From positions 1 through 41,318 of IMG/VR virus record IMGVR_UViG_3300038797_000001: a DNA stretch of 41,318 bases, one strand, 5' to 3'. Each line of letters begins with the position of its first letter. Positions within the stretch are counted from its first letter, which is position 1. The stretch comes from a virus. Both the position numbers and the translations under genes were made by a program. Shown in pieces: positions 1 to 41,318 of the stretch. Below the pieces are notes generated by a model, which saw only the letters and a program-made list of their open reading frames with translations, made no database searches and was not told the DNA's origin.

Positions 1-127
1 AACCTTCCAAATCATGGGGTAAAAGCCTCATTGAGCACTTGACGGTTGCTGCGTTAGGTGCCTGCGGCGGTGTCCTCTACTCGGTCGCTCGGGACTTCCT
101 ACCGGGAGTGCTGGTATGACCGCTAAA
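1..127. repeat. Exact duplicate of window end (41192..41318); circular-assembly overlap. Bases 1..119 repeat the 3' end of CDS 40813..41310
   Basis: Base-by-base comparison shows 1..127 is identical to 41192..41318. The reading frame of 40813..41310 ends at TGA 117..119 in this copy. Confidence 0.9.
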
Positions 128-277
128 CAGCACATGGCGTTCATCGCCGAAGGCTGCACCTACCACTTGTGGCTGCGCTGGCGCAACTCTCCGGTCGCTG
201 AGACCCGTCAGATGGCCCTCAAGGCCAAGGCTCATGGGGTCGTCACTTGGGATCGCATTATGAGGGCTGGCGCATGA
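116..277 (+). CDS. Small early hypothetical protein (53 aa, MTAKQHMAFIAEGCTYHLWLRW...); not in the ORF track
   Basis: ATG 116 overlaps the upstream stop (ATGA, 116-119). Its own stop TGA 275-277 overlaps the ATG 274 of the next gene. The frame was hand-translated and is open. It is also seen starting at 41307. Confidence 0.5.
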   Translation: MTAKQHMAFIAEGCTYHLWLRWRNSPVAETRQMALKAKAHGVVTWDRIMRAGA

Positions 278-1002
278 GCACTGTACTGACCAAGGCCACC
301 ACCGGGATCGCCTCACAGGACAAGTACCATCCAGTCCTCAAGCGCGTCCATGAGAAGTTCGCCGCGTCCAACCTTGAGATCCTCAAAGAGATGGCCGCTT
401 ACGCTGAGGAAAACGGCGGGATCAGCGCGGACAAGTTCAAAGAGAACTCCGCATGGTCGGCCTTCCTGAATGACTGCGTGATTTGCCACGCGCCGGGTGT
501 CTACTCGGTCGCCTACCTGCATCCAGCCTACTGCAAGGACATCTTGCACGAGGTCGCCAAGTTCAAGCACACGCCGAACGAGGATGAGCCACCAGAGGCG
601 CAGATCCCTGAGGTGGTCTTCGGGAACGAGCACAAAGTCCTCTATGAGGTCTTCCGTTCCTTCTGGCACGACGCTGGGCTGGCCTATGCGAAGGTTCTCC
701 TGAATATGGAGCCTGACGTACTGGTCACCGTCCAAGCGGCCCTATACGCGCCCTCAGAGACTCCACGAGGCCACTGGCACACCGACCGGGATAGCGACGT
801 GACGCTGGTTGTGGCTCTCAATGATGACCACGAAGGCGGTGGCACGATGGTCGCTCAAGGTCCTTTCTTCCCCGACCTGATCGTTCCTCAGAACGAGACC
901 GGCTGGGCCATGTTGTTCAAAGGCAAGACGACCCTGCACTACGGGCTACCTGTAACTGAAGGCGAGCGTCATCTGCTCGTCCACTGGAGTGAAATTAAGT
1001 GA
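274..1002 (+). CDS. 2OG-Fe(II) oxygenase, prolyl-4-hydroxylase-like superfamily (early gene)
   Basis: Motifs GHWHTDRDSD (HxD), DHEGGGT and TLHYGLPVTEGERHLLVHW (distal His plus Arg) fit the P4H-type pattern. GAGGG at 262-266 lies 7 nt before ATG 274. The track start at 247 is a TTG and is less likely. Confidence 0.75.
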   Translation: MSTVLTKATTGIASQDKYHPVLKRVHEKFAASNLEILKEMAAYAEENGGISADKFKENSAWSAFLNDCVICHAPGVYSVAYLHPAYCKDILHEVAKFKHTPNEDEPPEAQIPEVVFGNEHKVLYEVFRSFWHDAGLAYAKVLLNMEPDVLVTVQAALYAPSETPRGHWHTDRDSDVTLVVALNDDHEGGGTMVAQGPFFPDLIVPQNETGWAMLFKGKTTLHYGLPVTEGERHLLVHWSEIK

Positions 1003-1274
1003 TGCACCACAACTTCAAGCCGGCCAAGTCCGGTCTCTTCGACGCCAAGATTGCTCGGGAGAAGCACCTCCGCTTAGCGGCGACCTACGAGCACAACGAG
1101 GCGGTCAAGCGCGACGTGATGACGGCCATGTACGGCGGTCGCAACATCAAGCACATGGTCTCCATTCAGTTGCTCGATGAGGGCAAGTATGTGTTCCGTG
1201 CGGCAGCTCAACACGCACAGCTTCGCTACAGCGACCGTGGGGACTTCACCCGCTGCTATCGCGGAGGCTTCTGA
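999..1274 (+). CDS. Early hypothetical protein (about 90 aa)
   Basis: GTG 999 or ATG 1002 overlaps the upstream stop TGA 1000-1002. GGAG at 986-989 is 9 nt from the GTG. No recognisable motif. Confidence 0.65.
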   Translation: MMHHNFKPAKSGLFDAKIAREKHLRLAATYEHNEAVKRDVMTAMYGGRNIKHMVSIQLLDEGKYVFRAAAQHAQLRYSDRGDFTRCYRGGF

Positions 1275-1831
1275 TGGGCTTTAGCACCAGCACCAAGTCA
1301 GTCAAGTTCCACGCCTCGATTCCTCAGCCGGAGTCCTACGGGCTTCTCAAGGTTTCCAAGGTTGAATTCGCACTGGGTCTCGGGCCATGCGGTCGCCATG
1401 TCACTGAGCTGCACCACAAGATCGAGGGAGACCTGCTGACGATCACTCAGTACAGCCGGTTACCTGATGAGCTTGAGCCTCCTGATAGCTCTGCCGCTGT
1501 CTCAGCACGGTACAAGCTCCATGCAGACGACGCGCTACTCAGAGATGCAAAGCGCTGGGAACTCAACCGGTCAATCTACTACGACGTGGCCCCTGAGCGG
1601 CGCATCAAGTATTTCCGCTGGGGCTTCTGGCCGGTCTTCGAGGAAGTCATTGAGTCACCCAAGACGGTCGTCATTGACGGTGCCTTGAGCTTCGATGAGC
1701 GGGCCGAGCTGGAGAAGGCAATCAGCGACCACGAGGCTGCTATGCGGGTCTTCTGGCGTGGCCTCGAAACCAAGAAGTTTGTCTACAAGATCGCCGATAT
1801 TCACGGTCGGATCGAGGTGGTTACCAGCTAA
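1274..1831 (+). CDS. Early hypothetical protein (185 aa)
   Basis: ATG 1274 shares one nt with the upstream TGA. GGAGG at 1263-1267 is followed by a 6-nt spacer. Confidence 0.75.
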   Translation: MGFSTSTKSVKFHASIPQPESYGLLKVSKVEFALGLGPCGRHVTELHHKIEGDLLTITQYSRLPDELEPPDSSAAVSARYKLHADDALLRDAKRWELNRSIYYDVAPERRIKYFRWGFWPVFEEVIESPKTVVIDGALSFDERAELEKAISDHEAAMRVFWRGLETKKFVYKIADIHGRIEVVTS

Positions 1832-1847
1832 GTTCTAATCACGGATT

Positions 1848-1870
1848 TAAAAGCCCTCACTGTGGCTAAC
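1848..1870 (+). promoter_or_regulatory. Phage-RNAP promoter, variant (TAAAAGCCCTCACTGTGGCTAAC), directly upstream of the RNAP gene
   Basis: Matches the 23-bp element repeated 10 times in the genome, with G instead of A at about -12. Predicted +1 is G1865, by alignment to the T7 CTCACTATAG core. Confidence 0.75.
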
Positions 1871-1876
1871 ACAGCA

Positions 1877-1931
1877 CTCAGAGGGCCGTCCCTTAAAGAT
1901 CCTTTAAAGACTCCTTAAAGATCCCTCTGAG
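1877..1931 (+). promoter_or_regulatory. Long hairpin (9-bp arms CTCAGAGGG / CCCTCTGAG) enclosing three CCTTAAAGA(T) repeats; candidate RNase III / regulatory site in the RNAP leader
   Basis: Arms at 1877-1885 and 1923-1931 are perfect complements. Repeats lie at 1891-1900, 1901-1910 (one extra T) and 1913-1922. Confidence 0.6.
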
Positions 1932-1982: not shown

Positions 1983-4637
1983 ATGCTCGAAGCTGAACAG
2001 CGTCACGATTTTAGCGACATCAAGCACTCCGATGCCTTCGACACTCTCGCAGGTATCTACGGGCCGGAACTGGCAGCACAACAACTGCACCTCGAACATG
2101 AGGCGTACACGCTGGGCGAACAGAAGTTCAACGAGGCCCTTGAGCGCCAACAAGACCGAGGCGAGTTCTCCATGAACATGGTCGCCAAGCCACTGCTCGG
2201 GACTCTGGTTCCGAAGCTGGCCAAGGCCATCGAAGACTGGCGCACTCATCAAGTCGAGAAGGTTCGCCGAAAGCATGTGTCCCTCGGGATGTTCTTGCAG
2301 ATGGACGCTGAGGTCATGGCCTCCGTGACCATTCGGTGGACACTCAACCGCATTGCTCAACGATCCGGCGCACCGACCATCACGCAGATGGCTGTGAGCA
2401 TCGGAAAGGCCCTTGAGGAAGAAGCCCGCTATGGCCGCATCCGTGTAGCCGAGCAGGCATACTTCCAGAAGCACCTCAAGAAGGCCATCGCTCAGCGCAA
2501 CGGGAACACCTACAAGCTGGAGTACATGAACAAGATCGAGCAGCACATGCTTGAGACTGGTCAACTGACTTCCGCTTGGGAGGAATGGGAAGGTCAGGCG
2601 AATGATGCCCACTTCCACACAGGCGTTCGGATGCTCGAACTGCTCATCGAATCGACTCAACTGATCGAGGTGGTTCGAGAGCACAAGGGCAACAAGAAGC
2701 TGGACGGGGAGTACATCTACCTGAAGTCCGAGTGGGCCGAGAAGCTCCGCTCACGGGCCTACATCCTGTCCGGTGTGATGCCACGTCACCAGCCAATGGT
2801 CGTTCAACCGAAGCCATGGGTTGGGACACACGGTGGAGGCTACTGGGCCAAGGGTCGCAAGCCTGTCACGTTCATTCGGGTGCCCTCTAAGAAGGCCCTC
2901 AAGCGCTACCGCGACGTCGATATGCCGAACGTGTATCGCGCCGTGAACCTCGCACAGAACACCGCATGGGCGATCAACAAGAAAGTCCTCGCAGTGGCCA
3001 ACGCAGTGATGCAGTGGAAGAACGTTCCGATCAAGGAGTTCCCAACGGTCGAACAGGTTCCGCTGCCAATCAAACCGCACGACATCGACACCAACGAAGT
3101 GGCCCTCAAGGCTTGGAAGAAAGACGCTGCTGCTGTGTACCGAAAGGACTCTGCAAGGGTGTCCCGGAGACTCTCCTACGAGTTCTCGCTTGAGCAAGCC
3201 AACAAGTTCGCCGACTTCGATGCGATCTACTTTCCGTACAACCTCGACTGGCGTGGCCGGGTCTACGCGATTCCATCCTTCAACCCTCAGTCGAACGACA
3301 TGACCAAGGGTGTCTTGCAGGCAGCCAAAGGGGAACCTATCGGCGCTGAAGGGATTGAATGGCTGATGATCCACGGGGCCAACACAGCAGGGGTCGATAA
3401 GGTAACCTTTGATGAACGAAAACAATGGGTCATCGACAACGAGGAACTCATCCTTGCAGTCGCCCGTGATCCCCTCAATGTCACCGATTGGATGCAAATG
3501 GACTCACCGTTCTGCTTTCTCGCCTTCTGCTTTGAATGGGCTGGAGTCAAGGTGGCTGGTGTGGACTGGGTTAGCGCCCTACCCATTGCGTTCGACGGTA
3601 GCTGCTCAGGCATCCAGCATTTTTCCGCGATGCTGCGCGATGAACGAGGTGGGCGCGCTGTCAACCTCCTTCCAAGCGATGATGTCCAAGACATCTACAA
3701 GCTGGTATCCGACGAAGTTGAGACTGCCCTACTGCATCTTCGAGAAAACGGTACGGATGACTCAACGGAGATCTTTACCGACGAAGAGTCTGGAGAGATT
3801 CGTGAGAAACGGATACTCGGAACAAAAACCCTCGCTATGGCGTGGCTGACCTACGGGATGTCCCGAAAGGTCACAAAGCGCTCCGTGATGACCCTCGCCT
3901 ACGGATCGAAAGCCTTCGGGTTCGCCGATCAGGTTAGAGAGGACATCGTTAAGAAGGCCATCGAGAACGGTGAAGGCGATATGTTCACCGATCCCGGTCA
4001 GGCAAGCCGGTTCATGGCGGGCCTAATATGGGACTCCGTTAGCGTGGTCGTAGTGGCAGCGGTTGAGGCCATGAATTGGCTCCAGAAGGCGGCAAAGCTG
4101 CTGGCCTCTGAGGTCAAGGAAAAGAAAACCAAGGAGATCCTGAAGAAGGCCATGCCAGTCTACTGGTGTACGCCTGATGGGTTCCCTGTGTGGCAAGAGT
4201 ACACAATCAACGACACACGCCGGGTTGACCTCATGTTCCTCGGCGACATTCGGATCCAGTCCACGGTGACGGTTCGAATCAGCGACAAGATCGACGCCCG
4301 GAAACAAGAGTCGGGCATCTCGCCAAACTTCGTCCACTCGCAGGACGGCAGCCACATGCGCAAAACGATCGTCCACGGACACGATGCGTATCAGATCGAT
4401 TTCTTCGCGATCATCCACGACTCGTTCGGCACCATCCCGGCCAAGGCTGGAGCGATGTTCCGAGCGGTACGGGAGACGATGGTCGAGACCTATCAGAACA
4501 ACGATGTTCTCGCTGACTTCCGTGAGCAATTCATGGAGCAGCTCCACGAGTCACAGCTTGACAAGATGCCTGAGATCCCGAGCAAGGGAACCCTCGACAT
4601 CGCACAGATCCTCAACTCAAAATTCGCTTTCGCCTAA
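1983..4637 (+). CDS. gp1: T7-like single-subunit DNA-directed RNA polymerase
   Basis: 884 aa. Contains DGSCSGIQHFSAML and IHDSFGT motifs and the C-terminal ...KFAFA typical of T7 RNAP. Confidence 0.97.
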   Translation: MLEAEQRHDFSDIKHSDAFDTLAGIYGPELAAQQLHLEHEAYTLGEQKFNEALERQQDRGEFSMNMVAKPLLGTLVPKLAKAIEDWRTHQVEKVRRKHVSLGMFLQMDAEVMASVTIRWTLNRIAQRSGAPTITQMAVSIGKALEEEARYGRIRVAEQAYFQKHLKKAIAQRNGNTYKLEYMNKIEQHMLETGQLTSAWEEWEGQANDAHFHTGVRMLELLIESTQLIEVVREHKGNKKLDGEYIYLKSEWAEKLRSRAYILSGVMPRHQPMVVQPKPWVGTHGGGYWAKGRKPVTFIRVPSKKALKRYRDVDMPNVYRAVNLAQNTAWAINKKVLAVANAVMQWKNVPIKEFPTVEQVPLPIKPHDIDTNEVALKAWKKDAAAVYRKDSARVSRRLSYEFSLEQANKFADFDAIYFPYNLDWRGRVYAIPSFNPQSNDMTKGVLQAAKGEPIGAEGIEWLMIHGANTAGVDKVTFDERKQWVIDNEELILAVARDPLNVTDWMQMDSPFCFLAFCFEWAGVKVAGVDWVSALPIAFDGSCSGIQHFSAMLRDERGGRAVNLLPSDDVQDIYKLVSDEVETALLHLRENGTDDSTEIFTDEESGEIREKRILGTKTLAMAWLTYGMSRKVTKRSVMTLAYGSKAFGFADQVREDIVKKAIENGEGDMFTDPGQASRFMAGLIWDSVSVVVVAAVEAMNWLQKAAKLLASEVKEKKTKEILKKAMPVYWCTPDGFPVWQEYTINDTRRVDLMFLGDIRIQSTVTVRISDKIDARKQESGISPNFVHSQDGSHMRKTIVHGHDAYQIDFFAIIHDSFGTIPAKAGAMFRAVRETMVETYQNNDVLADFREQFMEQLHESQLDKMPEIPSKGTLDIAQILNSKFAFA

Positions 4638-5031: not shown

Positions 5032-5427
5032 ATGCAAGTCACTATCAAGTCCACCAGTTCCATCGTCGATGATCTGGTTCTGATCGAAACCGCAACGACC
5101 ATCGGCGAGATGACCACCATCAGCCGGGCGGGTTATCCGGTCGATGAGGTGATGGACAATCGCTTTCTGGCGGGCTCCCTTGAGGATCGCGTAGAGGCTC
5201 TCCGTGGCAGCGCCGAGCGCATGACCGAGACGAGCGTCCGGTTGCACTTTCAGGCCCTCGTGAAGATCGCCGAGAAGGCCCCGCAGGTTGAGGACGTCTC
5301 AGCGGTTCCGTCGAGTCAACTCCAAGGCGTCCAAGCGGATGCCCTGATCGTCGATGAGGTCGCGGACAAGCCAGCGGCCAAGAAGCCTCGCGCCAAACGC
5401 ACCACCAAACCTACCGAATCCAAGTAA
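5032..5427 (+). CDS. Hypothetical protein (131 aa) with Lys/Pro-rich basic C-terminal tail
   Basis: AAGGAG lies 6 nt before the ATG. C-terminus is KPAAKKPRAKRTTKPTESK. Occupies the T7 gene 1.2 position, but no similarity was recognised. Confidence 0.75.
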   Translation: MQVTIKSTSSIVDDLVLIETATTIGEMTTISRAGYPVDEVMDNRFLAGSLEDRVEALRGSAERMTETSVRLHFQALVKIAEKAPQVEDVSAVPSSQLQGVQADALIVDEVADKPAAKKPRAKRTTKPTESK

Positions 5428-5442
5428 GGGAACACCGCCACC

Positions 5443-6567
5443 ATGTCCAAAGTCGAATCCGTCATCCTGAAAACCAATCCACACCGCCCGGTCAACTTCA
5501 ACGAGAAGGCCGTAGCCGAGGTGATCGAATCCTGCTACGCCATCGCTGACGTCAAGAAGGACGGAGTGCGGTTGAACCTGTGCGTCGAACTCATCGAGAC
5601 CAAGCACGACCACGGCTGGGGCGTCGAATGGCTGAGCCGTGAAGGCAAGCGCTTCCCGAACTTCACGACCTTCGGGCAACCTCTGGATGCCGATGAGCGC
5701 TGGGAGAAGTTCTTCAAGGAGAACCATGGCGAGGGTCTCTTCCCTACCGGGTTCATGTTGGACGCTGAGCTGATCCTGCTGGATCCACTGGGCACTGAGG
5801 TTCCCTGCAAGGCGACCTCCGGTTCCCTCCGCCGTCAGGCCCATGCGCTGCCAATGAGCCGCCTCCGGGTCTACGTGTTCGACATCGTGCCTCTGGAAGT
5901 CATCAAGACGGATGCTGAGTACGACGTCTTTACGAGCGTCCGAAAGGGCCACGTTGAGTACCAAGTTGCCAAGCTGAAGGAATACTTCCCGGAGATCGAC
6001 TGGCGCGTGGCGGAAACCTACGAGGTCTACTCGATGGAGACCCTGCCAGTCGTTGAGCGTGAAGGCTTCGATGAGGAAGGCAACGAGATCACCGTGAAGC
6101 TCCCGCCTCCGCTGTCGCTGGTGCAACTCTACGAAGCTGTGCGTGAGCGTGGCGAAGAGGGTCTGGTCGTTAAGGATCCTTTGGGTTCCTATCGCCGCTC
6201 GAAGGTCAACGGCTGGTGGAAGATGACCCCGGATGACAACGAGGACGGCAAGGTGGTTGGTCTGGTGTGGGGCACTCCCGGCAAGGCCAATGAGGGCAAG
6301 GTGATCGGCTTCGAGGTTCAACTCGAATCGGGACACATCGTCAACGCTTGCAAGATCTCTCAGAAGCTCATGGATGAGTTCACCAAGGCCGTGGAGGAAG
6401 GCGCGCCGAACTGCCAGTGCTGTGACGATGACTATCTCGCGATGGGCGGTTGCTACGCTGGCCACACGGTTCGAGTGACGTTCATGGAGCGCTACCCTGA
6501 CGGGTCTCTGCGCCACCCATCGTTCGACTGCTTCCGTGGCATCTCCAACCCACTGATCAAGGAGTAA
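5443..6567 (+). CDS. gp1.3: ATP-dependent DNA ligase
   Basis: Adenylation motif DVKKDGVR (KxDG). Similar to T7 ligase throughout (EGLVVKDP, WWKMTP, GKVIGFEV, PDGSLRHPSF). Confidence 0.95.
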   Translation: MSKVESVILKTNPHRPVNFNEKAVAEVIESCYAIADVKKDGVRLNLCVELIETKHDHGWGVEWLSREGKRFPNFTTFGQPLDADERWEKFFKENHGEGLFPTGFMLDAELILLDPLGTEVPCKATSGSLRRQAHALPMSRLRVYVFDIVPLEVIKTDAEYDVFTSVRKGHVEYQVAKLKEYFPEIDWRVAETYEVYSMETLPVVEREGFDEEGNEITVKLPPPLSLVQLYEAVRERGEEGLVVKDPLGSYRRSKVNGWWKMTPDDNEDGKVVGLVWGTPGKANEGKVIGFEVQLESGHIVNACKISQKLMDEFTKAVEEGAPNCQCCDDDYLAMGGCYAGHTVRVTFMERYPDGSLRHPSFDCFRGISNPLIKE

Positions 6568-35127: not shown

Positions 35128-35583
35128 ATGTTGAACCTTAAAGAGTTCGTCATGTGGGGCCTTTTGGTACTGACTGGCCTCGGTCTGGTCTACGCCAAAG
35201 GGCGCTCTGACGAAAACATTCAGTGGGTCGCAAAGACCCAATCCGAACAACTGCAAGCACAAGCCAAACAGGAGGCCGAACGTGAGCAATACACCAAAGC
35301 ACTTGCTGCCCAATCCAAGGAATGGCAGGACTACAACGCCGCGTCTCAAGAGTCTGCTCGTCGGGTTGTTGCTGATCTGCGTAGCCGTGGTATCGGGCTG
35401 TCAGTCGAACTCTCAGATGCCAAAGTCCGTTGCGTCACAGGTGACGGTAGACCCCTCGCTGATGGTCGCGCCGAGCTACGAGAAGAGACTTCTACAGCTC
35501 TTGTCCGAATCGCCCGAGACGCAGACTCTCAAGTGAGAGCACTGCAAGGAACCGTCAAGATTCTTCAAGGAGGAACCCCATGA
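35128..35583 (+). CDS. gp18.5: i-spanin (Rz-like)
   Basis: N-terminal TM helix and a coiled-coil periplasmic domain. Contains the embedded o-spanin gene. Confidence 0.88.
35282..35536 (+). CDS. gp18.7: o-spanin (Rz1-like lipoprotein), embedded in a +1 frame of Rz
   Basis: Lipobox [14 protein letters not shown] start with GGAGG 6 nt upstream. DPSLMV parallels T7 gp18.7 DSSLMV. Confidence 0.82.
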
Positions 35584-37325
35584 GTAAACCCCGTGACGGG
35601 GCTGCTGACATAGCTTTAATGAGAAGGTCATTCGTGGCCTTTCTTTTTGTCTTGTGGAAAGCCCTAAGCCTGCCCAAACCGACCCGCTGTCAGATCGATA
35701 TGGCCTCGAAGCTCAGCGCTGGCGATCAACGCCGGTTCATCCTTCAGGCCTTCCGAGGGATCGGGAAGTCATTCATCACCTGCGCCTTCGTGGTGTGGAA
35801 GCTCTGGAACAATCCAGACCTGAAATTCATGATCGTGTCCGCCTCGAAAGAGCGTGCGGATGCTAACAGCATCTTCATCAAGCGCATCATTGAGCTGCTC
35901 CCATTCCTGCACGAGCTGAAACCTCGGAACGGTCAACGGGATAGTGCGCTGGCCTTCGACGTGGGGCCTGCCAAACCTGACCACTCGCCATCCGTGAAGT
36001 CTGTAGGTATCACCGGTCAGTTGACTGGTAGCCGTGCTGACATCCTCATTGCGGACGACGTTGAGGTTCCGAACAACTCGGCCACTCAGGCAGCTCGGGA
36101 ACACCTCGGAGAACTCGTTAAGGAGTTCGACGCGATCCTGAAGCCGGGCGGTACGATCATCTACCTCGGCACTCCACAAACCGAGATGACCCTCTACAGG
36201 GAACTCGAAGGCCGGGGCTATGTGACAACCATCTGGCCAGCTCGTTATCCGGTCGATCAGAAGGACTGGGAGACCTACGGCCCACGCCTCGCTCCGATGC
36301 TCCAGAAGGAACTCGAAGACGACCCAAGACTCTTTTGGGCGCCTACGGATGAGGTGCGATTCGATGACGCTGACCTGCGTGAGCGGGAACTCTCCTACGG
36401 GAAGGGCGGCTTCGCCTTGCAGTTCATGCTCAACCCGAACCTCAGTGACGCCGCTAAGTACCCTCTCAAGCTGCGAGATTTCATCGTGGGGAGCTTTGCA
36501 CCTGACAAGGCACCTACGACCCTCACTTGGCTGCCAAACGGCAACAACGAGGTCAAGAACGTTCCTATGGTCGGCCTGCAAGGTGACCGGTTCCACCGCT
36601 ACGAAGCTGTCGGTCAGTCCATGGCAGCATACGCTCAGAAGATCCTCGTTGTTGACCCCTCGGGTCGCGGTAAGGATGAGACCGGCTATGCAGTCCTGTA
36701 CCAGTTGAACGGCTACATCTTCCTCATGGATGCCGGTGGCTTCCGTGGTGGGTACGAGGACACGACCCTGCAATCCATTGCCAACCTCGCCAAGCTGTAC
36801 AAGGTGAACGAGGTGGTGGTCGAGGGTAACTTCGGTGACGGCATGTACGTCAAGCTGCTGGCCCCTGTGGTCGCCGCTACCTATCCTTGCGCTGTCACAG
36901 AGGTCAAGTCCAAGGGTCAGAAAGAGATGCGCATCTGCGACGTCTTAGAGCCTGTCCTTGGGTCTCACAAGCTGGTCATCCAAGAGGCCCTCATCGAGAA
37001 AGACTACCGGTCGGCAGTGAACGCGGATGGCACCATGGATCCGCAATACAGCCTCCTGTACCAGCTCACACGCATCACCAGAGATCGAGGCGCCCTACGC
37101 CATGATGACCGTCTGGACGCCCTCGCAATAGGCGTACAGTTCTTCACGGACGCCATGGAGAAGGACTCGAAGGTTGGTGAGTCGGAGATGCTGGAGGAAT
37201 TCCTTGAGAGCCACCTTGAGAACGCCCTGATGGGAGCTGACCACATCCGCCAGATCGCTGTGTCGGAGACCGTGGACATCTACTATGAGGACGATGGGTC
37301 TCTTTCCAACTACATGGGCTTCTAA
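35580..37325 (+). CDS. gp19: Terminase large subunit
   Basis: [62 protein letters not shown] and [20 protein letters not shown] match T7 gp19. Confidence 0.96.
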
Positions 37326-37706: not shown

Positions 37707-37769
37707 CTGCGCAACCGGGCCTAATTCGGCAGTGTTAGCACACTACCTCTTAGGCCGATAAGAGCAATC

Positions 37770-37856
37770 CCTAATGAGGGTCTAATGGCCCTCCTTAAGG
37801 GTTCCTAATGAGTCCGACATACGGTACTTGCAGGGAACTCGAAGATATCCTAATGT
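37770..37856. repeat. Cluster of CCTAATG(A/T) octamers (plus TCTAATGG), right-side junction array
   Basis: CCTAATGA at 37770 and 37804, CCTAATGT at 37849, TCTAATGG at 37782. Confidence 0.7.
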
Positions 37857-38006
37857 GACCTTTAAGAATCTGACAGAAAAATCTGAATGGTCACCTCTCA
37901 TAGACAACGGCTGAGGATTCCCCCGTAGGGCCTCTCTCAGTCATCTCAACGGCCATCCATCCCCATAGGGTTCCTTGAGATTTCCTTGAGGTGATCGTGA
38001 AGATCT

Positions 38007-38171
38007 CTCATGGGCACCATCATGGGCTATTGGATCGTTGAGTGCCAATTGGTATTCTCTATGGGATCTCATGGGGTTCATTGAGGTTCTCTATGTGTCC
38101 GTCTGTCCCTATCTGTTATCGCTCATTGAGATCCTCTATGACACCATCAAGATCCATTGAGCTACTATGAG
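38007..38171. repeat. Array of about 10 degenerate CTC(A/T)(A/T)TG(A/G)G motifs in non-coding DNA
   Basis: CTCATGGG 38007, ATCATGGG 38019, CTCTATGGG 38057, CTCATGGGG 38068, TCATTGAGG 38078, CTCTATGTG 38089, CTCATTGAG 38122, CTCTATGAC 38134, CCATTGAG 38154, CTACTATGAG 38162. Confidence 0.6.
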
Positions 38172-38194
38172 CATCCCAGGTGATGAAGTCCTAT

Positions 38195-38273
38195 CCTAAT
38201 GACCATCCTTGAGACCTCCTAATGAGACCACTGAGCAGCGCTCCTAATGACAGGCTAAGGAAGACCCTAATGG
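38195..38273. repeat. Cluster of CCTAATG(A/G) octamers, left-side junction array
   Basis: CCTAATGA at 38195, 38218 and 38243; CCTAATGG at 38266. Confidence 0.7.
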
Positions 38274-38343
38274 CCTCTATAGGCTCTCTCAGGTGCTCTA
38301 TAGGCTGTGTTGGGTTGTGGTGATGATTGTTGATAATTAGTGG

Positions 38344-38372
38344 TTGACAGCATCATTGAGGGTCTATAGGAT
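38344..38372 (+). promoter_or_regulatory. Host sigma70-type early promoter P1 (TTGACA, 17 nt, TAGGAT)
   Basis: -35 TTGACA at 38344-38349, 17-nt spacer, -10 TAGGAT at 38367-38372. AT-rich upstream sequence (TTGTTGATAATTAG). Position is analogous to T7 A1. Confidence 0.7.
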
Positions 38373-38504
38373 GGCTCCCATCAACAACGCAATGACCTAC
38401 GGGTTGTCGCTGAGTTGCTCAGAGGCTTAGTAGTCACTGACCAGCGATCCTACGGGTGCCAAAGGTCTTAAGGTGATGAACACCGAAGAGGTGAAACAAA
38501 GGGC

Positions 38505-38533
38505 TTGACAGCAACACTGGAACACGGCAACAT
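38505..38533 (+). promoter_or_regulatory. Host sigma70-type early promoter P2 (TTGACA, 17 nt, CAACAT), paralogue of P1
   Basis: Same -35 with extension (TTGACAGCA), same spacing, and the same ATCAACAACG box 7 nt after the -10 as in P1. Confidence 0.55.
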
Positions 38534-38849
38534 GCGCTCCATCAACAACGAAACACGCAACACGGTCACTGAACAGATGTCATGGGTAGGTGGCTTGGGA
38601 GAGGTCAAAGTCTCCAGCGTGGATCGAACGGGCACCATTGAGGCGGTCTTATAGACGCAGCACGGCACCCATACGCTCTTTAACAACTCGGAATGTAACA
38701 GCCTCAAGGGCGGGCACTCGGATAGCACATCGAGAACCCTTGAGGTAAGTGATTAGGAAGCACAGCAGAAGGTCTTCGTGACTGCATGCACAGGGTCTGG
38801 TTAGGGCCTTCGACTGTGATTCTCAACACACAACCGTAGAGGTGACGCC

Positions 38850-38957
38850 ATGGAAGCACTCGATGCAATGGATCTGGCTATCACAGGGATCGTCCTGATA
38901 CTGGGCACGATCATTGTGGTCTGTGCGATCCTCAGTATCTCAGAGGATATCGACTGA
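38850..38957 (+). CDS. First early gene: 35-aa single-pass membrane peptide (MEALDAMDLAITGIVLILGTIIVVCAILSISEDID); not in the ORF track
   Basis: GAGG lies 7 nt upstream. The stop TGA shares one nt with the next ATG (38957). Confidence 0.55.
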   Translation: MEALDAMDLAITGIVLILGTIIVVCAILSISEDID

Positions 38958-40353: not shown

Positions 40354-40722
40354 ATGCTTACCAACATCCTGATCGCCGCTGCCATCGTAATCATCTGGAT
40401 CATGTGCTCGGGCATCATCTGGCTCGGCCTCAAGGGTCTCCAAGAGGGCACGATCTACGACCGGATCAAGTACGACATGATGACCCCGGCCTTTCGTGGC
40501 ATGCTGGTCTTCTTCGCGCCGATCATCCTGATCAAAAAGCTGCTCCAATTCCTGCTGTCCATGTGGGCCTACATCCTGATCATTGCGGTCATTGTGTGGG
40601 GCTGCACGCTCCTGTTGGGCTGTCAGGTAAACGTGGTGACCGCACCTCATGCAACCTTCATGGTTGACTCTGTGACCGCTGAGAGCATCGATCAGGGCAT
40701 CTACGAACGCAACGCCGAGTGA
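40354..40722 (+). CDS. Early multi-pass membrane protein (122 aa, about 3 TM segments)
   Basis: AAGGAG RBS. Hydrophobic stretches are ILIAAAIVIIWIMCSGIIWLGL, GMLVFFAPIILI and WAYILIIAVIVWGCTLLLG. Confidence 0.78.
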   Translation: MLTNILIAAAIVIIWIMCSGIIWLGLKGLQEGTIYDRIKYDMMTPAFRGMLVFFAPIILIKKLLQFLLSMWAYILIIAVIVWGCTLLLGCQVNVVTAPHATFMVDSVTAESIDQGIYERNAE

Positions 40723-40729
40723 CGCAAGT

Positions 40730-40758
40730 ATTAGACCTGATGGGCTGTCGGGTCTAAT
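40730..40758 (+). other. Intergenic hairpin ATTAGACC / GGTCTAAT (8 bp, 13-nt loop), no U-tract
   Basis: Perfect inverted repeat. The loop shares CTGATGGG with the 46-nt element. Confidence 0.45.
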
Positions 40759-40812
40759 GCTGGATTCACTCCACATAGAACGTCTGACCAACCATAACCA
40801 TAAAGGTTCAAC

Positions 40813-41310
40813 ATGCAACGCTACAATCGTACCAACTTTGTTTCTGAGCGAGTTGCTCGGGGGATCGTAACGGCTATGACCGCCTGCTTAGCAGATGGTT
40901 TCGCCCACTACATCGAAGACCGTAAAGGCCAACGCTGGCTCCGTGTGGACGTCGTGCCTAACCTGAGTGGTCAAGGCTACACCTTTGAGTTCCTCGCCGG
41001 GAACGGTCAAGAGGTTGGGCCTCAGATCATGCAGGCCATCTTTAGCTGGTCGAAGGGAGCCGAACGGGCTTTCTCCGAGCTACTGAGCGAACTCTACACG
41101 CGTTTTGAGCATCCGTTAATCACTGCCCGACGAGCGGACTCTGAAGAATTGGATCCTGTCAATGGTGCAGATGCTCCAGTAGTGCAAAATAAACCTTCCA
41201 AATCATGGGGTAAAAGCCTCATTGAGCACTTGACGGTTGCTGCGTTAGGTGCCTGCGGCGGTGTCCTCTACTCGGTCGCTCGGGACTTCCTACCGGGAGT
41301 GCTGGTATGA
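40813..41310 (+). CDS. Early hypothetical protein (165 aa) with C-terminal hydrophobic segment; first gene of the coupled oxygenase operon
   Basis: Open frame in the track. Its stop overlaps the ATG of the next ORF (41307, equivalent to 116). Weak RBS (AAAGG). Confidence 0.7.
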   Translation: MQRYNRTNFVSERVARGIVTAMTACLADGFAHYIEDRKGQRWLRVDVVPNLSGQGYTFEFLAGNGQEVGPQIMQAIFSWSKGAERAFSELLSELYTRFEHPLITARRADSEELDPVNGADAPVVQNKPSKSWGKSLIEHLTVAALGACGGVLYSVARDFLPGVLV

Positions 41311-41318
41311 CCGCTAAA
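41192..41318. repeat. Second copy of the 127-bp assembly overlap (identical to 1..127)
   Basis: Identical sequence by direct comparison. Confidence 0.9.

Follow-up and report, generated by a model that had tools for sequence, protein, structure and literature searches.

The five-ORF block upstream of gene 1

The window analysed here is the whole of IMG/VR virus record IMGVR_UViG_3300038797_000001 (41,318 nt), which holds the full genome, assembled as a circle, of a gh-1/phiPSA2-like (Ghunavirus-type), T7-like Pseudomonas phage. The subject of this work is a gene for a predicted 2-oxoglutarate (2OG)/Fe(II) oxygenase of 242 amino acids (aa), located at 274..1002 within a block of five open reading frames (ORFs) that precedes gene 1, the T7-type single-subunit RNA polymerase (RNAP) gene (1983..4637, plus strand). 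A first-pass annotation of this DNA had proposed that the block is a translationally coupled early operon, in which the oxygenase, described as prolyl 4-hydroxylase (P4H)-type, is accompanied by stoichiometrically coupled partners. DNA and protein searches grouped the phage with Ghunavirus-like Pseudomonas phages, e.g. Kallioja, Kompost-2, and Lepni01, and nucleotide identity in this region is 71-77%. The gene order is canonically T7-like with all genes on the plus strand, and the RNAP domains PF14700 and PF00940 were found on an 89% identical homologue of gene 1.

All five ORFs are present in the ORF list, on the plus strand, at 40813..41310 (ORF1, 165 aa), 116..277 (ORF2, 53 aa), 274..1002 (the oxygenase), 999..1274 (ORF4, 91 aa), and 1274..1831 (ORF5, 185 aa), and their position upstream of gene 1 is confirmed. 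The four stop/start junctions named in the first-pass annotation are likewise found in the sequence: ggtATGAcc at 116-119 (equivalent to bases 41307-41310), gcgcATGAgc at 274-277, aaGTGATGca at 999-1004, and ttcTGATGgg at 1272-1276. Every start in the chain has a GGAG-type Shine-Dalgarno sequence 7-12 nt upstream, inside the preceding ORF. Positions 1-127 of the window are 100% identical to 41192-41318, an exact 127-nt duplication to which no strand applies; therefore, the contig is a circularised assembly with a 127-nt overlap and a unique genome of 41,191 bp, and because of this overlap ORF1 runs straight into position 116. End duplications of 127 nt are typical of k=127 assembly of circular or terminally redundant genomes.

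The oxygenase is most similar to lysyl hydroxylases

The motif residues of the 242-aa protein are H167-W-H169-T-D171, G188-G-G-T191, H222, and R232. H169 (codon at 778-780), D171 (784-786), H222 (937-939), and R232 (967-969) do not vary among 51 homologues with identities as low as 33%, and the same holds for residues 102-113, which form an N-x-x-E-x(4)-Q-I-P-E motif; the loss of HxD...H residues among homologues, which would have spoken against an oxygenase, is not seen. In a profile alignment to the human lysyl hydroxylase (LH) LH3, H169-T-D171 correspond to HHD, H222 to the distal His, and R232 to the Arg of GTRY. By this comparison the Fe ligands are H169, D171, and H222 (the HxD...H triad), and R232, ten residues after the distal His, is the putative Arg that binds the C5 carboxylate of 2OG.

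The enzyme class was assigned from the PHROG families, a profile search of Protein Data Bank (PDB) sequences, and the predicted structure instead of from Pfam or NCBIfam. The protein falls in phrog_61 ('2OG-Fe(II) oxygenase') with an E-value of 3e-43. An AlphaFold2 (AF2) model built with the 51 homologues has a mean predicted local distance difference test (pLDDT) score of 95.2 and a predicted template-modelling (pTM) score of 0.91, and contains the double-stranded beta-helix (DSBH, or jelly-roll) core fold. When this model was compared to the PDB with Foldseek, 450 matches at E<=0.001 were obtained, and the best 50 are all 2OG-oxygenase-type DSBH proteins. Both the alignments and the model thus place 274..1002 as a 2OG/Fe(II) oxygenase of the P4H/PLOD clan with intact catalytic residues, in agreement with the first-pass annotation.

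The description as P4H-type holds at the level of the clan, but in both profile and fold comparisons the closest characterised relatives are the LH domains of PLOD/LH3 and mimivirus L230, not the prolyl 4-hydroxylases. The top Foldseek match is LH3 (E 2e-11), followed by the L230 LH domain (E 9e-11, TMt 0.73), and when the profile of the 51 homologues was searched against all PDB sequences, E<0.01 was reached solely by LH3 (8.8e-14, spanning the full LH domain at profile positions 48-229) and L230 (2.4e-12). An OGFOD2-like N-terminal segment and a 2OG-FeII_Oxy_3 core are shared with LH3 and L230, and the HxD...H triad lines up residue for residue, as does the Arg located ten positions past the distal His. 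In contrast, identity to them is just 20-24%, the phage protein has ~60 extra N-terminal residues, and it covers the LH-like domain only, without the glycosyltransferase domains of PLOD. For instance, the genuine PLOD P0254 carries GT_PLOD and, C-terminal to that domain, both PF25238 and PF13640. The P4H/prolyl hydroxylase domain (PHD) group shares the clan and the DSBH fold, and PBCV-1 vCPH, human PHD2, and P. putida PPHD, along with PiuC, are found among the lower Foldseek matches at E ~1e-7. However, this group ranks below the lysyl hydroxylases in both searches (by ~4 orders of magnitude in Foldseek E), and identity to it is 13-21%.

On the window protein itself, PF25238 (OGFOD2-like) scores 20.7 bits (E 4.5e-4) against a cut-off of 31 bits, and PF03171 (2OG-FeII_Oxy) 13.9 bits (E 0.07) against 23. 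PF13640, the match anticipated in the first-pass annotation, was not found at E<=1, although 36 of the 51 relatives match it weakly and 42 match PF25238 at E<=0.01. The family is better described as lysyl hydroxylase-like (PLOD/OGFOD2 architecture) than as P4H proper. In addition to the direct match to PHROG 61, a family of cyanophage and other 'auxiliary' oxygenases, the fold matches in BFVD include many cyanophage and giant-virus oxygenases. The window subfamily differs from these in being tight, nearly confined to Pseudomonas phages among cultured isolates, and located in a T7-type pre-gene-1 block.

Many GenBank relatives are already labelled as 2OG-Fe(II) oxygenase, hydroxylase, oxidoreductase, or P4H alpha subunit. 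The family is thus already catalogued and annotated in databases, the window gene is one more member of it, and the novelty claimed for the gene was overstated. Homologues in Lepni01, Ghual01, 17A, and Bosely, and in cyanophage S-RIM50, are labelled 'glycosyltransferase' or 'DNA endonuclease (V)', the latter on phrog_2297 and BFVD entries. Both labels appear to be carried over from multidomain PLOD or from misnamed cyanophage oxygenases, and the wrong 'glycosyltransferase' label on several GenBank relatives is explained by the lysyl hydroxylases being the nearest relatives. As the first-pass annotation had indicated, no described function was found: full-text literature searches returned no functional study of the oxygenase.

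Distribution and accessory status

In tblastn searches, the oxygenase was found in 193 of 50,697 phage records, 188 of which are Pseudomonas phages, with at least 80% query coverage in 158 of the 193. No Escherichia phage is among the 193, consistent with the earlier statement that T7 and T3 have no such enzyme. An exhaustive profile search of 1.84 billion representatives also indicated a tight family, with 105 matches at E<=1e-30 and 182 at E<=1e-10. Among ten family members sampled, six are on contigs of phage-genome size (20-70 kb) and four solely on short fragments (1.6-8 kb), and none has an informative name.

Homologues of the oxygenase occur in several unrelated genome types of Pseudomonas phages, and those below ~40% identity sit in other neighbourhoods. 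For instance, in the phiKMV-style phages Kompost-1 and SoKa a distant oxygenase is encoded at the end of the early region, before the primase/helicase, and in the 63-kb phage Skulduggery one lies between HNH/NinB and the replication initiator. A 345-aa relative is found in the structural/tail module of a 46-kb SU10-portal-type contig (locus L072, 7001-10623; similarly in L073 and L074), where it shares 4 nt with the start of the ORF for a radical S-adenosylmethionine (SAM) protein of 862 aa. This long form (340-372 aa) has more than 20 representatives and an extra N-terminal domain of ~125 aa; no Pfam match was obtained for this extension in relatives of 345-372 aa.

Chromosomal homologues were considered as a cellular origin and rejected, as the few chromosomal copies are integrated T7-like prophages. 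Prophages of this kind, with a single-subunit RNAP, are present in P. solani CP195316 (4.00-4.02 Mb) and on a P. fontis contig; one of the two has ArdA in its early block and the other a tyrosine integrase beside the host gene earP.

The intact oxygenase is under clear purifying selection. Relative to its 87% identical homologue in the metagenomic contig L064, differences at the first, second, and third codon positions number 23/18/77, compared to 45/28/64 for ORF1 and 16/13/22 for ORF2. Nevertheless, the gene is not universal among close relatives. The genus type member gh-1 has zero genes between its host promoters and gene 1. In phi15, gp08 (locus L071, 3472-3888), the gene after gp07, retains only oxygenase residues 64-110, and the phiPstE copy (L076, 2963-3649) ends at residue 227 and has lost the C-terminus including R232. 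These copies are truncated or frameshifted remnants. The same is probably true of phages phi2, whose protein (BFVD D2EBR2) is a 121-aa oxygenase fragment, and PMBT23, which matches residues 189-242 only. Since gh-1 lacks the block and the phi15 and phiPstE copies are truncated, the oxygenase is dispensable for the lytic cycle.

Co-occurrence with neighbouring ORFs

If the five ORFs encode one functional unit, then they are expected to occur together wherever the oxygenase is found. Co-occurrence was assessed by tblastn with all five proteins in 64 oxygenase-encoding loci (61 IMG/VR contigs, two GenBank phages, and one metagenomic contig). ORF1 was found in 30 of the 64 loci and in 129 phage records, ORF4 in 19 loci and 71 records, ORF5 in 24 loci and 68 records, and ORF2 in a single locus (L064) and no phage record. 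The order ORF1-oxygenase-ORF4-ORF5-RNAP is kept only where oxygenase identity is at least 67%, in all 13 such loci. L064 has a different set of small downstream genes, and in other relatives Bro/Ant genes are inserted inside the block. Therefore, neither the co-occurrence nor the order of all members expected of a conserved multi-gene module is observed, and the claim of stoichiometrically coupled partners is not supported by this comparison; the lack of co-occurrence that the first-pass annotation named as grounds for refutation is largely what was seen. In the preferred reading, the neighbours are closely spaced early genes that have evolved separately rather than subunits. As the oxygenase is accessory and evolves independently of its neighbours, the single gene is the unit to study.

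The overlaps themselves are ordinary T7-type gene packing. Across the genome, stop/start overlaps of 1 or 4 nt occur at ~14 of ~50 same-strand junctions in a crude ORF call (further examples of overlap junctions are at 38957, 39205, 9565, 10005, 16162, 16368, 26254, and 35580), and the four successive overlaps are a local cluster rather than a statistically special signature.

ORF1 (40813..41310, plus strand; phrog_8679), the stop of which overlaps the start of ORF2, is the commonest neighbour of the oxygenase. Alignment and model indicate a conserved alpha/beta N-domain of ~110 aa and a hydrophobic C-terminal helix; the model has a pLDDT of 84 and is good for residues 1-115, and Foldseek found no fold match in the PDB (best E 0.2). 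P101 is invariant in the alignment and is preceded by a nearly invariant His. Mass spectrometry of phi15 virions detected the homologue gp07 (PMC3079711).

ORF2 (116..277, plus strand) encodes a small basic protein (pI 10.4) and is inserted between ORF1 and the oxygenase. It had no tblastn match in the 50,697 phage records, and its sole homologue, in the metagenomic relative L064, is also 53 codons long, is 64% identical at the amino-acid level, and preserves both of the ATGA overlaps. ORF2 is therefore probably a real but lineage-restricted gene and not a conserved partner. ORF4 (999..1274, plus strand) also encodes a basic protein, which matches phrog_19243 and phrog_7066, and its start is ambiguous between GTG 999 and ATG 1002.

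The earlier remark that the four neighbours have no recognisable motif does not apply to ORF5 (1274..1831, plus strand), which belongs to the T3 gene 1.05 family (PF25755; E 9e-19, 67.6 bits against a curated cut-off of 27 bits). ORF5 differs from T3 gene 1.05 in its location before rather than after gene 1 and in an internal insertion of ~100 aa between conserved N- and C-terminal segments, which is absent from short relatives of 82-98 aa. Early blocks related to that of the window carry ArdA or a gp0.7-like kinase.

Transcriptional context

A non-coding stretch of ~1.1 kb (37710-38850) contains short repeat arrays (CCTAATG, CTCTATG, and TCATTGAG) and two tandem TTGACA boxes, and is the counterpart of the region that is annotated with terminal repeats and host promoters in gh-1, phiPSA2, and phiPstE. 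The true terminal repeat boundaries are not readable from a circularised assembly. One box is part of a candidate sigma70-type early promoter (TTGACA-17-TAGGAT, 38344..38372, plus strand) with 10 of 12 matches, and the other of a second promoter-like copy with a weaker -10 element, CAACAT (38505..38533, plus strand), which may likewise be functional. The unit is repeated at 161-nt spacing with a conserved downstream box (D10 at 38339/38500 and D14 at 38378/38539), and the spacing from the promoter at 38344 to the first early ORF resembles that of the annotated host promoters of phiPstE, phiPSA2, and gh-1. No terminator-like site was predicted between 37800 and 41318, and the block is syntenic, on the same strand and before gene 1, with those of phiPSA2, phiPstE, Kallioja, and Lepni01. 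By these sequence features, the oxygenase appears to have the location of a T7 class I gene, i.e., between left-end host promoters and gene 1 with no intervening terminator, and the early position proposed in the first-pass annotation is upheld, with sigma70-like promoters preceding the gene as they do in annotated relatives.

The 5' edge of the block is marked by a conserved RNA hairpin directly upstream of ORF1 (40717..40772, plus strand), with a 15-bp upper stem, a predicted energy of -33.6 kcal/mol, and a z-score of -3.3. A hairpin of the same shape is present at the same place in six relatives. Alignment of fixed windows upstream of ORF1 gave no consensus structure, as the hairpins were out of register, and anchored hairpin segments were used instead; across the seven phages, 20 pairs are predicted and nine of these are kept through double changes. 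The hairpin is not in Rfam. Judging from T7 and gh-1, it may be a site of RNase III processing; alternatively, it may act as a leaky terminator.

At the other end of the block, between ORF5 and gene 1, a copy of the phage-RNAP promoter with one mismatch to consensus (AGCCCTCACTGTGGC; 1846..1886, plus strand) overlaps a GC hairpin within a highly structured region (1825-1985, z -5.0). This arrangement matches the phi1/Te1 and RNase III sites annotated in gh-1 and phiPSA2. The phage promoter AAAAACCCTCACTRTGGCTAC (family D1) has at least 12 copies in the genome: 15 sites were found with up to three mismatches, compared to 2.0 expected by chance, and 11 have at most one mismatch to the 15-nt core. 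One promoter-like site with a single mismatch (AACCCTCGCTATGGC) lies inside the RNAP gene at 3827-3841.

The early mRNA of T7 undergoes processing. By analogy, the five ORFs are probably carried on one processed segment of the early transcript, and such a shared segment would explain their co-expression without requiring co-function.

Proposed role and alternatives

Overall, the reading that best accommodates these observations is that the gene encodes an accessory early protein hydroxylase, maintained by purifying selection, that acts alone on what is probably a Pseudomonas protein; a probability of roughly 0.45 is assigned to this reading as a whole. The host RNAP would transcribe the gene within the first minutes of infection, and the oxygenase would be produced from an mRNA segment bracketed by the hairpin at 40717-40772 and the promoter/hairpin ahead of gene 1. 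With Fe(II), 2OG, and O2, the enzyme would then add a hydroxyl group to a Lys or Pro side chain in a protein, likely of Pseudomonas or possibly a co-expressed phage protein, and would do so without neighbouring ORFs as subunits. For the phage, this would bring a non-essential benefit in takeover, host adaptation, or host range. Near-confinement to Pseudomonas phages, together with movement between unrelated genome types, suggests a host-genus-specific target, and a Pseudomonas protein is therefore favoured. Hydroxylation of a translation factor is known in the host genus, as P. putida PPHD hydroxylates EF-Tu (4iw3 entry title).

Several observations weigh against this reading. Direct Pfam and NCBIfam matches to the oxygenase are all below the gathering thresholds, and Lys/Pro protein hydroxylation is argued solely from the nearest structural and sequence relatives, at 20-24% identity; despite the Foldseek margin of ~4 orders of magnitude in E over other DSBH oxygenases, TM-scores are similar (0.55-0.63). 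Early transcription by the host RNAP is suggested only by synteny and consensus matches, the whole promoter scan is not above chance (three found compared to 2.0 expected), and in some relatives, such as phi15, a phage-type promoter precedes the ORF1 homologue. Additionally, ORF1 abuts the oxygenase in every locus with oxygenase identity of at least 67%, and a looser functional association between the two is possible.

Four alternatives differ from the proposed host-protein hydroxylase in the partners, the substrate, or the current role of the enzyme. The original proposal, that the five coupled ORFs are one unit in which the oxygenase and stoichiometric partner subunits modify a host target, draws on the four consecutive overlaps of 1-4 nt, the gene order shared by all 13 closest loci, and the conserved RNA structure that brackets the block. 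However, co-occurrence is lost beyond close relatives, even the 87% identical oxygenase of L064 is followed by other genes, relatives' blocks are interrupted by Bro/Ant insertions, and overlaps are a packing habit across the genome. Similarly, the ORF5 family is found in T3, which is without the oxygenase, phi15 keeps an ORF1 homologue beside a degraded oxygenase, and distant oxygenases adjoin primase/helicase, HNH/NinB, or radical SAM genes. A five-part unit is therefore considered improbable. The substrate might instead not be a protein at all, but a nucleic-acid base (oxidised in repair or modification of the AlkB/TET-like kind) or a small-molecule signal or metabolite that is destroyed or altered, or the enzyme might serve as a 2-oxoglutarate drain. 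The superfamily is chemically versatile, there is a weak match to phrog_2297 'DNA endonuclease' (E 2e-7), and some distant homologues adjoin replication genes. Against this, the best 50 PDB fold matches are mostly protein lysyl and prolyl hydroxylases, plus PiuC-type and uncharacterised oxygenases (3dkq and 6n1f), and as no AlkB, TET/JBP, or small-molecule oxygenase is among those 50, the AlkB/TET-type reading was down-weighted. The PDB profile matches are lysyl hydroxylases only, and the proteins that carry the phrog_2297 and cyanophage 'endonuclease V' labels have 2OG-oxygenase folds. A non-protein substrate is thus judged unlikely.

A phage protein as the target, e.g. the ORF1 product or a virion component, is quite unlikely, although it has its own attractions: ORF1 usually overlaps the start of the oxygenase and has an invariant proline after a nearly invariant His, its phi15 homologue was found in purified virions, and the 345-aa relative lies inside the structural module of another phage type. 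Yet there is no detectable ORF1 in 34 of the 64 oxygenase loci, and phi15 retains ORF1 with a mere oxygenase remnant. PLOD-type lysyl hydroxylases act on Lys in collagen-like X-Lys-Gly sequences, and such an enzyme would be suited by Gly-X-Y repeats, but no collagen-like substrate is encoded in the phage genome, in which the single Gly-X-Y run has four triplets. It is highly improbable that the window phage carries the gene as a passenger in decay, without a present function; gh-1 lacks it, and the copies in phi15, phiPstE, and probably phi2 and PMBT23 are truncated, but the window ORF is full length with all catalytic residues, shows a strong third-position bias relative to its 87% identical homologue, and is matched by copies intact over at least 80% of their length in 158 of the 193 records.

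The preferred reading, an accessory hydroxylase acting alone on a host protein, may be compared by position with T7 class I host-takeover genes such as 0.3 (Ocr) and 0.7 (kinase), which lie in the same interval, after the left-end host promoters and before gene 1. Like T7 gp0.7, the oxygenase would be a dispensable protein-modifying enzyme; in contrast, it has no sequence relationship to these genes and would hydroxylate instead of phosphorylate. If a host protein is indeed the target, then hydroxylation would join the known chemistries of phage takeover, namely phosphorylation, ADP-ribosylation, and acetylation. A more specific version, in which a phage-borne lysyl (or prolyl) hydroxylase modifies a Pseudomonas translation or transcription factor or a defence protein early in infection, and thus represents a new takeover or anti-defence route specific to Pseudomonas phages and exchanged among unrelated lineages of them, is tentative and rather doubtful. 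On present evidence, the oxygenase gene is an unremarkable accessory gene, although an unexplained one.

Other features of the genome

Downstream of gene 1, the ligase gene (5443..6567, plus strand) is followed by DNA metabolism genes and then structural genes, and the terminase gene is at 35580..37325 (plus strand). Rfam and tRNA scans of the whole window gave no match. A 45-nt direct repeat (family D4, 76% identity), which may be due to chance, is found at 5104-5148, in a 131-aa ORF after gene 1, and at 36216-36260, in the terminase gene.

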